The position numbers and the translations under genes are program-made. From Acidimicrobiia bacterium (GTDB taxonomy: Bacteria; Actinomycetota; Acidimicrobiia; Spongiisociales; UBA5794), in contig BTQL01000006.1 of the NCBI GenBank assembly GCA_036985855.1, forward strand, positions 2,566 to 66,565: DNA of 64,000 nt, in the 5' to 3' direction. Below the pieces are notes generated by a model. It searched no databases. It was not told where the DNA came from and saw only the letters and a program-made list of their open reading frames with translations. Each line of letters begins with the position of its first letter. Positions within the stretch are counted from its first letter, which is position 1. This document shows, in pieces, positions 12,395 through 15,077 of this stretch.

Positions 12395-13015
12395 CTACAT
12401 GTCTTCCAGGAGTTGCCGGCGTTTCGCCTCGAACTCCTCGTCCGAGATGTGTCCCTGCTCGTGCAGCTCTGCGAGCGCCTGGATCGCCTCGGCATTTGCA
12501 GCGCCGCCGCGCTGCTGGGGAGCTGTGTCATGGCGGCCGCTGAGGTACAGCGTCCTTTCCTCGCGAATCCGGTAGAGCTCGGTCTGGAACTTGTCCGGGC
12601 GCGGTATGTCCTTGAAACGTGACTGGCCTGAGGTCCCCGCCGACTCGACGAGGAGATCTCCTGCACCGATCACGCGCTCGAAGACCGTCTGGGAGAAGTT
12701 GACGTTCGTTATGTTCTCGAGCGGGATCTCGATGCCGCTCTTGGAGATGAGTCCATGCCGTGTCATGAGCCGCTCCGACGACAACACATAGAGCATTGTC
12801 CACCATCGCAGGAAGGGCGTCACAACAAGCCACAGAGCAAGTGCGAGATAGATGAGGAATCCCCAGACGCCGATGTCCAGCCACTTGATGACCAGGCCCC
12901 ACCCGATAGACAAGAGAACGAAGAAACTGATGGGTACGGCGAGAAGCTTCCAGTGAGAACGAAACGTCGTGACGATCGTTTCGTCTGCGGTGAGGGCATC
13001 TTCGGGCCAAGACAT
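12395..13015 (-). CDS. Membrane bPH (YdbS/YdbT-like) domain protein with C-terminal SHOCT domain
   Basis: Two TM helices followed by a PH-like region (LMTRHGLISKSGIEIPLENITNVNFSQTVFERV). The C-terminal LAELHEQGHISDEEFEAKRRQLL matches the SHOCT pattern. Confidence 0.75.
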   Translation of the reverse strand: MSWPEDALTADETIVTTFRSHWKLLAVPISFFVLLSIGWGLVIKWLDIGVWGFLIYLALALWLVVTPFLRWWTMLYVLSSERLMTRHGLISKSGIEIPLENITNVNFSQTVFERVIGAGDLLVESAGTSGQSRFKDIPRPDKFQTELYRIREERTLYLSGRHDTAPQQRGGAANAEAIQALAELHEQGHISDEEFEAKRRQLLEDM

Positions 13016-13100
13016 GGCGCCATGCTACGCATGTCGCTCCCTCTTTGAGATGACCGATGAGCCGATCTCCGGGCACCCGACGGCTGAAGGCTGCAGGACG

Positions 13101-13135
13101 CGAGAAACCCCAAGGAAGCCGAAGCCCCCTTGGGG
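13101..13135 (-). terminator. Terminator-like hairpin ending structured-RNA unit 1
   Basis: Minus strand reads CCCCAAGGGGGC(UUCG)GCUUCCUUGGGG followed by UUUCUCGCG. Homologous to the hairpin at 13628-13672. Confidence 0.4.
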
Positions 13136-13438
13136 TGTTCTCCGCTTCACCTCCGGTCTTTCGACCTTTGGATCCGCCGCTCCGCAAGCGGAGCGTTTGG
13201 CTATGAGCCGAAGCTCACGGCCTGACCCTCTGGACCGTCGGCCGAAGCCGGTGCGGCAGGGCTTTCACCCCGGCCACCTTGCGGTGGTTCCTTTCGGGCG
13301 GACTCGTTTCCGAGCCCTCGCCGGCTTTTACCCCGGCCCGCCTCCGGTTTCCCTTCGGCGTCCGCATCGGGTTGCCCCTCTGCGTAAGACGTACATTGGC
13401 ACTCACCATGCACCCATGCAAGCCAGATCGCTGGTTGC
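13101..13438 (-). ncRNA. Candidate large structured RNA, unit 1 (family not recognised)
   Basis: No credible ORF. On the minus strand there is a chain of GC-rich hairpins capped by UUCG (13118-13126, 13204-13217, 13240-13249), GAAA (13155-13166, 13303-13314), GCAA (13274-13287, 13363-13384) and CUUG (13178-13195). Paralogous to unit 2. The ends are approximate. Confidence 0.5.
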
Positions 13439-13468
13439 TTTTCGCGAACTGCATCTAGTTTTCGCGAA
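13439..13468 (-). promoter_or_regulatory. Pair of CGCGAAAA boxes, 20-bp phasing, upstream of unit 1
   Basis: Minus strand reads TTCGCGAAAAC-N9-TTCGCGAAAAG. The core TTCGCGAA is palindromic. The same arrangement occurs at 14087-14116. Confidence 0.4.
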
Positions 13469-13627
13469 TGGGATCACACACATCAGAACGCTCAACGCAG
13501 GGGACTGATCGGCCTTCGTCCGACAGGCTTGCAACATCGCGGTCGGGACGGCGCGCCGGTCTATCCGGTGACTCAACAACCGAGAGAAGAGAGGCGGATT
13601 CTTCCTCTTTCCCGATCCTGTCAGACG

Positions 13628-13672
13628 CGCAAAACCCCGAGGAAGCTCGACCGAAGTCTTGCCCTCTCGGGG
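13628..13672 (-). terminator. Terminator-like hairpin ending structured-RNA unit 2
   Basis: Minus strand reads CCCCGAGAGGGCAAGAC(UUCG)GUCGAGCUUCCUCGGGG followed by UUUUGCGCG. Confidence 0.4.
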
Positions 13673-14086
13673 TTTGCTCCGAAGTGACAATGTCACTCCA
13701 GTCCGGGCCTCAACGGTTTCCCGTCTCATCCCGGGGTGTCCCTTCTCTCCCGAAGCCGAAACCTCGCTCGATCCGAGACCTCATCTTCGAGCCGAAGCTC
13801 GCCGATGAGTCCCTGTTCGGAACCGAGATTCCGTCCAGGTCGGAGATCCACCCGAGGGCTTCTCTCCAGTGACCTCTCAAAGGCTGGGCTCCTCCTCAAG
13901 GTCGTGCCTTCCGCCGAAGCAGTTGGCCGTGCGATCCGGGTTGCCCCGTCTCGCTGGCAGCTACCGGTTTCCCGGTCAGTTCACCGAAACGGTGACCCAG
14001 CCGCCGCGCCCTCCGGGCTTTCGCCCTTCGAACAAGACGGAACTTACGGGCGGCCGATTCCAACCGCAAGCCAAACTGGCGTTTGG
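13628..14086 (-). ncRNA. Candidate large structured RNA, unit 2 (family not recognised)
   Basis: No credible ORF. Minus-strand hairpins are capped by UUCG (13649-13658, 13789-13800, 13913-13920), GAAA (13713-13724, 13963-13976, 14015-14026) and GCAA (13931-13954). The 5' region, central hairpin and 3' hairpin align with unit 1. The ends are approximate. Confidence 0.5.
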
Positions 14087-14116
14087 TTTTCGCGTTGTAC
14101 GAATCGTTTTCGCGAA
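14087..14116 (-). promoter_or_regulatory. Pair of CGCGAAAA boxes, 20-bp phasing, upstream of unit 2
   Basis: Minus strand reads TTCGCGAAAAC-N9-AACGCGAAAAC. Aligns base-for-base with 13439-13468. Confidence 0.4.
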
Positions 14117-14200: not shown

Positions 14201-14222
14201 TGTCACACCGCTTCGGTACAGT
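14201..14222 (+). promoter_or_regulatory. RecA-NDp (PafBC-type)-like promoter of the nuclease-adnAB operon
   Basis: TGTCACAC-N8-TACAGT compared with the mycobacterial motif tTGTCRgtg-N8-TAnnnT. The TGTCA core, N8 spacing and TAnnnT are kept; the last three positions of the upstream box differ. The -10 ends 6 nt before the ATG at 14229. Confidence 0.3.
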
Positions 14223-14228
14223 CACACC

Positions 14229-15077
14229 ATGACGACGAACACCGACGAATCCCCTCTCCAGGCGCGGATGCTTGGGACGCTCTCCCCATCCCGCGCGAGC
14301 GATTTCAAGACATGCCCCCAGTTGTACAAGTTCAAGTCCATCGACAAGATCCCCACCGAGCCGACGGTGTATCAAGCCAGAGGAACGACCGTCCACCTTG
14401 CATTGGAACGTCTTTTCGGCGAACCCGCAGACAAGCGCACCCCGGAGCGTCTCTACGACCTGTTCAGGGAAGCGTGGACCGAGCTGAAACCGGTCGAGTA
14501 CCCGGACCTCTTCGAATCTGTCGACAAAGAGCGCGCGTGGGGCGTTGAGAGCCTCAACATGCTTGCAACGTATTTCTCGATAGAGGATCCGTCATCCTTC
14601 GAGCCGAAGGCCCTCGAGATGGACCTGCTCGTCGACGTCGACCACATGACGATCAGGGGAATCCTCGACCGAATGGAAGAAGTCATCGAAGTAGGGCCGG
14701 ACGGACGCGAACGAACCGCCCTTGTCATCACCGACTACAAGACGGGAAAGGCTCCCGGTGAGCAGTACGCGAACAAGGCGTTTTTCGCGCTCAAGATCTA
14801 TGCCCTGTTGATACGTATCAGTCAGGGTGTCACTCCTACCCGGATCCGGCTCTTGTATCTCAATGGTCCAACCGAATACACGATGGAGATCACAGACGCA
14901 CAACTCGACGCGATGGCAAAACAGCTTGCAGCCTTGTGGGGCGCCATCGAAAAGGCGATCACGACCGATACGTGGCCTGCCAAGACGTCGGCACTGTGCA
15001 ACTGGTGCGATTTCAAGGACACGATATGTCCTGCATGGGCTGACGAACGTGCGGCAACCCAAGATGCCGATGCCTGA
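14229..15077 (+). CDS. PD-(D/E)XK nuclease, Cas4/RecB-like with 4-Cys cluster
   Basis: 282 aa. One N-terminal Cys (KTCPQLYKF), a nuclease core (GILDRM...LVITDYKTGK, FALKIYA), and C-terminal CNWCDFKDTICP. Overlaps the adnA start. Confidence 0.8.
   Translation: MTTNTDESPLQARMLGTLSPSRASDFKTCPQLYKFKSIDKIPTEPTVYQARGTTVHLALERLFGEPADKRTPERLYDLFREAWTELKPVEYPDLFESVDKERAWGVESLNMLATYFSIEDPSSFEPKALEMDLLVDVDHMTIRGILDRMEEVIEVGPDGRERTALVITDYKTGKAPGEQYANKAFFALKIYALLIRISQGVTPTRIRLLYLNGPTEYTMEITDAQLDAMAKQLAALWGAIEKAITTDTWPAKTSALCNWCDFKDTICPAWADERAATQDADA

Follow-up and report, generated by a model that had tools for sequence, protein, structure and literature searches.

The OmrA/OmrB and PrrF1/PrrF2 pairs of small RNAs (sRNAs) are, as is generally known, encoded by adjacent paralogous genes on the same strand, each with its own promoter and the same upstream sites, in which the 3' hairpin is kept and the middle has diverged. 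Several paralogues, sometimes in tandem, also make up the CsrB/CsrC and RsmX/Y/Z groups, where a common upstream activating sequence goes with a terminator that is conserved and hairpin modules that vary in number. Extensively covarying large RNAs are rare in bacteria, and those that are understood serve fundamental functions. Here a 64-kb stretch of DNA from an Acidimicrobiia bacterium (contig BTQL01000006.1, positions 2,566 to 66,565; the window in what follows) was analysed around a gap of ~1.2 kb, read on both strands, that separates a PH/SHOCT membrane-protein gene (12395–13015, minus strand) from a PD-(D/E)XK nuclease gene (14229–15077, plus strand). This gap almost certainly holds independent structured RNA genes. 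They are probably two in number, each specifying a stable and highly structured non-coding RNA (ncRNA), and siblings of one previously undescribed family. The RNA-bearing stretch (13098–14116, minus strand) contains two neighbouring units, and the most plausible reading of the locus is a new RNA family with an organisation of a known kind, in which sibling structured RNAs are co-regulated and act in trans.

All of the traits given above for OmrA/OmrB and PrrF1/PrrF2 recur at this locus (PMC4211561), and the upstream boxes, the promoter offset and the 3' hairpin, by which sibling sRNAs are recognised, are common to both units across 80 loci. The units differ from those pairs in being 3–5 times larger, in carrying many covarying hairpins and in having no recognisable single-stranded seed. 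The common upstream sites, the modular body and the common terminal hairpin are also reminiscent of CsrB/Rsm RNAs, but the loops here are UUCG or GNRA. Membership of that group was rejected because the 19 tetraloops counted below lack the GGA motifs that define it.

The extents of the two RNAs, in window positions, are as follows:

13625–14034, minus strand: unit 2 RNA, ~410 nt with ~15 covarying hairpins; predicted start 14034 ± 3, predicted 3' end ~13625–13627
13098–13386, minus strand: unit 1 RNA, ~290 nt with ~11 hairpins; predicted start 13386 ± 3, predicted 3' end ~13098–13100

The consensus obtained with RNAalifold from 18 unit 2 orthologues comprises 86 pairs, 43 of which show compensatory double changes (22.1 in shuffles, with 0 of 500 shuffles as high). 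This number falls to 8–14 when the partners are slid by 1–3 columns, and 96.4% of the cells are paired in the consensus, compared with 88.2% in shuffles. For unit 1 (14 orthologues) 29 of the 75 pairs are compensatory. A preliminary description, made from the letters of the window, had proposed a tandem pair of paralogous structured RNAs on the minus strand; the covariation in the orthologues confirms both the selection at the RNA level and the orientation. The 15 hairpins listed there were all found at their coordinates on the minus strand, with the loops given. Counting every stem of at least 3 bp closed by a GNRA or UUCG loop in 13101–14116 yielded 19 tetraloop hairpins on the minus strand (eight UUCG, six GAAA, three GCAA, one GGGA and one GAGA) and one on the plus strand, while dinucleotide shuffles of the minus strand gave 3.5 ± 1.8, with a maximum of 10. 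Both RNAs are also far more stable than their shuffles, with a larger margin on the minus strand. Of the refuting conditions set in that description, those open to sequence analysis (an Rfam match, a folding energy like that of shuffles, and a lack of homologues or homologues that keep a protein frame) all turned out in favour of the RNAs. The minimum free energy (MFE) of the unit 2 RNA (13631–14037) is −210.7 kcal/mol (z = −7.51) and that of the unit 1 RNA (13105–13389) is −151.2 kcal/mol (z = −5.20), and the plus strand of the wider units gives weaker scores (z = −2.70 and −4.06).

In the face of this covariation, the idea that the gap holds no RNA genes and consists of degenerate coding sequence, a dispersed repeat or DNA-level regulatory sequence has a practically negligible probability; the covariation and the coding tests refuted it. 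Long spurious open reading frames (ORFs) across the region, the inverted CGCG core common to box and tail (see below) and the many contigs that break at the locus would speak for it. Against it, 290 of the 326 gap runs in the alignments are not multiples of 3, and the orthologue alignments show neither a 3-nt substitution periodicity nor a consistently open frame. None of the five ORFs tested in the gap has a Pfam domain, in agreement with the earlier impression that no domain was recognisable. A protein-coding gene was rejected on all four grounds. The homologue check suggested at that stage returned many relatives, and what they conserve is the stems rather than a reading frame, with G-U pairs and compensatory changes that are strand-specific. 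A dispersed repeat (repetitive extragenic palindrome, REP, or miniature inverted-repeat transposable element, MITE) or a mobile element was likewise discarded: there are two copies in 64 kb, they are syntenic in 77 of 80 loci, and viral contigs and phage and plasmid collections gave no match.

The preliminary description had recognised no known RNA family, and this holds for Rfam 15, whose families include RNase P, tmRNA, SRP, 6S, riboswitches, GOLLD, ROOL, HEARO, OLE, raiA and actinobacterial sRNAs. The 64-kb window gave 0 matches at the gathering threshold and, at permissive settings, just matches with E ≥ 1.5, well short of any threshold; 16 homologous loci gave two tRNAs only, and the short and long relatives gave no match. 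Literature searches on Acidimicrobiia sRNAs and on the hairpin sequences returned nothing relevant.

Relatives were collected through a search with the nuclease protein, which gave 80 species-level loci, nearly all labelled Acidimicrobiia, with nuclease identities of 55–84%. The order PH/SHOCT – gap – nuclease is widely kept among them, the gap ranging from ~0.8 to 3 kb. A box pair and/or the 3' hairpin is present on the RNA strand in 77 loci, and the three loci without units are contigs truncated upstream. In total, 131 box pairs and 128 terminal hairpins were counted on this strand, mostly as two promoter-to-hairpin units per locus. In almost every related Acidimicrobiia genome examined, the pair is flanked by the PH/SHOCT membrane-protein gene on one side and by a PD-(D/E)XK nuclease/helicase operon on the other; in the window the neighbours are genes for a bPH_2/SHOCT protein and a PD-(D/E)XK nuclease. 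Full-length orthologues of both units were found with nhmmer in ~20 closer genomes, at 68–88% identity. A degenerate pattern of the 3' hairpin retrieved more than 120 metagenome contigs among the matches listed, and in most of these the PH/SHOCT gene and/or the nuclease gene again adjoins the hairpin. Family-wide, the unit length from box to hairpin is 166–839 nt (median 380). The RNAs themselves span from ~135 to more than 600 nt, and in distant lineages a short RNA of ~135 nt is paired with a long one.

The preliminary description was right in dividing the region into two related units with common 5' and 3' blocks, but the 5' block (about 13393–13468 and 14041–14116), which it had taken for RNA, is a promoter with two upstream boxes. 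Its elements are the following:

14087–14116, minus strand: unit 2 upstream boxes, TTCGCGAAAAC-N10-CGCGAAAA, with CGCGAAAA at 14114–14107 and 14094–14087
14041–14069, minus strand: unit 2 promoter of sigma-A type, −35 TTGCGG (14069–14064), 17-nt spacer, −10 TAAGTT (14046–14041)
13439–13468, minus strand: unit 1 upstream boxes, TTCGCGAAAAC-N10-TTCGCGAAAA, with CGCGAAAA at 13466–13459 and 13446–13439
13393–13421, minus strand: unit 1 promoter, −35 TTGCAT (13421–13416), 17-nt spacer, −10 CAATGT (13398–13393)

Each unit thus has two CGCGAAAA boxes 20 nt apart and a −35 element exactly 17 nt past box 2; the 64-kb window has six CGCGAAAA sites in all, four of them being the unit boxes. The consensus of the box was drawn from 247 distinct promoter regions. 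A pattern TTGnnn-N17/18-TAnnnT is found in 188 of 245 distinct homologous regions, and in 186 of these 188 the −35 element stands 17 nt from box 2 (2.9 in shuffles), the remaining two having 16 or 18 nt. The offset in unit 1 is that of the family consensus. The commonest hexamers in the family, TTGACG and TACTTT, form a near-consensus sigma-A promoter. The spacer between the hexamers is neither conserved nor covarying across homologues and the block therefore bears the signature of a promoter. The positions of the −10 elements give the predicted starts at ~14034 and ~13386. Since the common 5' segment is promoter DNA, the RNAs measure ~290 and ~410 nt and not ~340 and ~460 nt as originally estimated; the correction trims the promoter and sets the 3' ends ~9 nt past the GGGG, at 13098 and 13625. 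The boxes are presumed to be binding sites for an activator or phased A-tracts with an UP-element-like action. In the first case they would place both genes under one factor; in the second they would act as UP-like elements.

The 3' block common to both units has the core CCCCrAGrGGGC...GCUyyCUyGGGG (13672–13635 and 13135–13108), and it folds into a terminal hairpin in each:

13625–13682, minus strand: unit 2 terminal hairpin, core CCCCGAGAGGGC...GCUUCCUCGGGG (13672–13635), GCAAA paired to the tail UUUUGC
13098–13146, minus strand: unit 1 terminal hairpin, GCGGAGAACA-CCCCAAGGGGGC-UUCG-GCUUCCUUGGGG-UUUCUCGC

All 14 unit 1 orthologues agree at every position from ACCCC through the UUU tail. A covariance model of the hairpin (R1) scores 59.9 bits (unit 2) and 36.4 bits (unit 1) on the minus strand and 22.5 and 20.9 bits on the plus strand, the hairpin being strand-specific because of its invariant G-U pairs. 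Over the 64 kb the model found no copy beyond these two (next best E > 2), hence the hairpin is family-specific, and the idea that it is a generic terminator of this genome was rejected. The tail has the consensus UUUCUCGCGU, with 60–90% agreement per position over 218 distinct tails, and pairs with the 5' flank. Compensatory flank/tail variants include GAGAG/CUCUC, GCAAA/UUUGC, CAGAA/UUCUG, GGAAA/UUUCC and AGGAA/UUCCU, the duplex energy is −6.19 (−5.42 ± 0.11 with permuted partners), and the first flank pair (9–50) is formed in 54 of 54 aligned sequences with 8 switches from A-U to G-C. It follows from this pairing that the RNA runs at least 6–9 nt past the GGGG (to ~13625 and ~13098) and that its 3' end is base-paired. 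The unit 2 hairpin is likely a predicted intrinsic terminator, a protected base-paired 3' end and a family-specific handle at once. In this scenario the 3' hairpin would terminate transcription, leave a recessed, exonuclease-resistant 3' end and possibly also serve as a common handle for protein binding. As a separate observation, the tail UUUCUCGCG(U) (13098–13107 and 13625–13634, and family-wide) and the upstream box TTCGCGAAAA have a CGCG core in common, in inverted orientation.

The possibility that the units act in cis on the downstream PH/SHOCT gene, as a giant leader or attenuator, which the preliminary description had left standing next to that of independent RNAs, is very improbable. 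The common orientation of units and gene, and the distance of ~30–160 nt between the last unit and the PH/SHOCT start in most loci, would favour it. However, the PH/SHOCT gene has a −10 element of its own:

13013–13027, minus strand: PH/SHOCT −10 TAGCAT (13027–13022), 6 nt before the ATG (13015); context, not part of the RNA

A TANNNT element is placed 6–7 nt upstream of the start codon in 89 of 104 distinct homologous PH/SHOCT starts, which points to a leaderless mRNA made from its own promoter. Moreover, every unit has its own promoter and terminal hairpin, relatives have an opposite-strand gene between the units, and family members occur without a nearby PH/SHOCT gene. The leader was rejected as largely refuted by the promoter and the opposite-strand gene that intervene, and of the two original options that of independent RNAs is favoured, supported by their own promoters, the opposite-strand gene and the unrelated contexts. 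In some cases the conserved tail UUUCUCGCG(U) reaches into the −35 region of the PH/SHOCT gene. The nuclease gene also looks leaderless, with TACAGT 6 nt before its ATG (14217–14231, plus strand).

The consensus and MFE folds of the bodies consist of 11–17 local hairpins. Four elements of unit 2 are invariant or near-unchanged rather than covarying, namely the ACCGGGAAACCGG hairpin (13976–13963), the AGCCCAG loop, the 3' domain (13735–13683) and the terminal hairpin, and they are candidate sites of specific contacts. Those located in the body are:

13963–13976, minus strand: unit 2 hairpin ACCGGGAAACCGGU, near-unchanged in 18 orthologues with one compensatory exception (L025)
13870–13903, minus strand: unit 2 hairpin with the 7-nt loop AGCCCAG (13890–13884), GAGG/CCUU closing and a 3 × 3 internal loop
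13683–13735, minus strand: unit 2 conserved 3' domain (helices 14–16), a CCCGG...ACGGGAAACCGU...CCGGG helix and then a GGAGUGAC...GUCACUUC hairpin, whose last two bases reach 13681

The loop of the first hairpin is GAAA in 15 of the 18 orthologues. The AGCCCAG loop is invariant in all 18, helices 8 and 9 covary, and this hairpin is a candidate contact or seed site. Two complementary segments were considered as partners of the loop, CUGGGU near the 5' end of unit 2 (as a kissing or pseudoknot contact) and GGGCU in unit 1; neither is conserved in the orthologues. The remainder of the body is modular, and close relatives differ by the duplication or loss of hairpins. Within unit 2 of the closest relatives, a 43–45-nt hairpin module is present in one to three additional copies: there are 4.1 tandem copies of a 43-nt module in L004 (178–352), two copies in L003, L005 and L025, and one in the window. 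The first hairpin of unit 1 is duplicated in some lineages.

As the mechanism of these sibling RNAs, a role in binding proteins or as a scaffold is favoured over seed pairing and other modes, although tentatively, because the invariant elements are structured hairpins and not single-stranded seeds and because all members, whichever body they have, keep the 3' hairpin. The RNAs would be abundant and stable, and would accumulate and act in trans. As components of a ribonucleoprotein (RNP), they would work through the ACCGGGAAACCGG hairpin, the AGCCCAG loop, the 3' domain and the 3' hairpin.

C-rich loops are known from the 6C and RsaE/RoxS RNAs of Gram-positive bacteria, and those found here could be likened to them. 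The corresponding explanation, that the units are base-pairing sibling sRNAs whose C-rich loops (AGCCCAG in unit 2, G(G)CCCGCUUU in short members) act as seeds on mRNAs while the 3' hairpin is a stability or chaperone module, is rather doubtful. The invariance of the 7-nt loop is in its favour, as are an 8–10-nt loop conserved in 53 distinct sequences of short units and the combination of common promoter, divergent body and common 3' module seen in sibling sRNAs (PMC4211561). On the other hand, seed sRNAs are typically much smaller and less structured than RNAs of 290–700 nt with ~10–15 covarying helices, and the loop sequence varies between family subtypes. Many local genes appear leaderless and hence offer no Shine-Dalgarno (SD) target, and the complementarity of the short-unit loop to the long sibling is no better than shuffled.

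A comparison with OLE, GOLLD, ROOL, HEARO and raiA (for raiA, PMC10861870) is suggested by the large size, the strong covariation and the wealth of tetraloops, and, in the case of OLE, also by a neighbouring membrane-protein gene that points the same way. A ribozyme or an ornate self-assembling RNA of the kind of ROOL, GOLLD, OLE or raiA, with GNRA loops docked into receptors within a large tertiary or quaternary structure, would account for the density of GNRA and UUCG loops and for the several invariant stems and loops that do not covary and thereby suggest tertiary contacts. It is nonetheless unlikely. Neither a long-range helix nor a pseudoknot was detected in the consensus folds of the units, and no multi-helix junction is common to both folds, a weak one being predicted in unit 1 only. 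The units are linear strings of local hairpins that match none of the covariance models of these classes in Rfam. Their modules are gained and lost between close relatives, and such a length-variable body would be unusual for a precise catalytic or cage fold. They also differ from these classes in forming a co-regulated pair. A related but rather doubtful proposal is a new class resembling OLE, ROOL, GOLLD and raiA in which the RNA would be a trans-acting core RNP scaffold or a decoy for a global regulator, with the 3' hairpin as handle and the CGCGAAAA boxes defining one regulon. One possibility is that such a class fills the 6S/Ms1 niche in Acidimicrobiia.

6S RNA binds the RNA polymerase (RNAP) holoenzyme and Ms1 the RNAP core. 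No 6S or Ms1 was seen in the window, and the Ms1 survey does not mention one for Acidimicrobiia. A global RNAP-binding RNA in this role was weighed. Like Ms1 and 6S, the units are actinobacterial ncRNAs of several hundred nucleotides at a conserved genomic position, and their ~300–400 nt, sigma-A-type promoter and deep conservation at one syntenic site recall housekeeping RNAs such as Ms1 (PMC9130861, PMC4191392). However, 6S RNA is defined by a long double-stranded rod with a central bubble that resembles an open promoter, and the synteny of Ms1 involves HAD-IB hydrolase and oxidoreductase genes (PMC9130861). The strings of local hairpins found here form no such rod or bubble, the flanking genes are others, no 6S model of Rfam matches, and the family extends down to ~135 nt and beyond 600 nt. 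Identity with Ms1 or 6S was rejected on structure and synteny, and an RNAP-binding role is quite unlikely.

Several points weigh against reading the locus as a pair of co-regulated sibling RNA genes. The start sites and 3' ends of both RNAs are predictions from sequence. A simple scan for consensus promoters and terminators gave no match in the window, whose hexamers resemble the E. coli consensus weakly; the promoter was established by conservation across the 245 homologous regions and not by that scan. The −10 of unit 1, CAATGT, is non-canonical and weaker than that of unit 2, which makes the assignment of the unit 1 promoter less certain. The hairpins are followed by UUUC or UUUU, a U-tract of only 3–4 U, and this is why the terminator scan reports none. 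The counts in relatives cover the DNA that flanks the locus in each genome rather than whole genomes. The analysis identified neither a partner protein nor a target nor a repeated protein-binding motif. Finally, the hairpin modules do not keep their internal loops from one orthologue to another, which disfavours a simple multi-site sponge; the sponge was rejected since neither a loop motif nor an internal-loop motif recurs in conserved form from module to module.

Co-regulated sibling RNA genes would account for a recurrent long intergenic gap that has gone unannotated and that coincides with a frequent break point in metagenome-assembled genomes (MAGs). The family occupies one locus in at least 77 species-level Acidimicrobiia genomes and in many sediment and saline metagenomes, and neither Rfam nor the literature searched contains it. 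The gain and loss of hairpin modules is an unusual mode of evolution for a structured RNA, the well-defined promoter boxes provide a handle for finding the cognate regulator, and the locus opens a way to study RNA-based regulation in a class of actinobacteria that is abundant in the environment and largely uncultured.

Short relatives of ~150 nt, with one GTCGCGAAAA box or none, were also found outside the PH/nuclease context (L153 1316–1640, L101 2812–3497 and L139 3800–4410). Those of L153 and L101 adjoin tRNA genes, the L153 copy coming after cysS and a SpoU methylase gene, and those of L139 form a tandem pair near SnoaL and luciferase-like genes. In many relatives an opposite-strand gene for a lipoprotein-like product of ~205 aa, with the lipobox LIGGC, lies between the units (L013 2790–3407, plus strand; L011–L026). 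A 194-aa ORF on the RNA strand of L013 was discarded as the antisense frame of this gene. The gene is missing from the genome of the window, where the units are separated by a spacer only:

13481–13619, no strand: spacer of 139 nt between unit 2 and unit 1

Assembly breaks are very frequent inside the RNA locus or within ~60 nt of it (L004–L008, L024, L025 and many of L083–L202), and the L001 and L002 contigs meet at window positions 13113–13124, inside the locus. The near-palindromic 3' hairpin or strain-level variation in the number of modules are possible causes. Synteny of the Acidimicrobiia type was seen as well in five contigs (L035, L037, L068, L006 and L036) from MAGs labelled Kiloniellales, Gammaproteobacteria or Acidobacteria, which are probably mis-binned.

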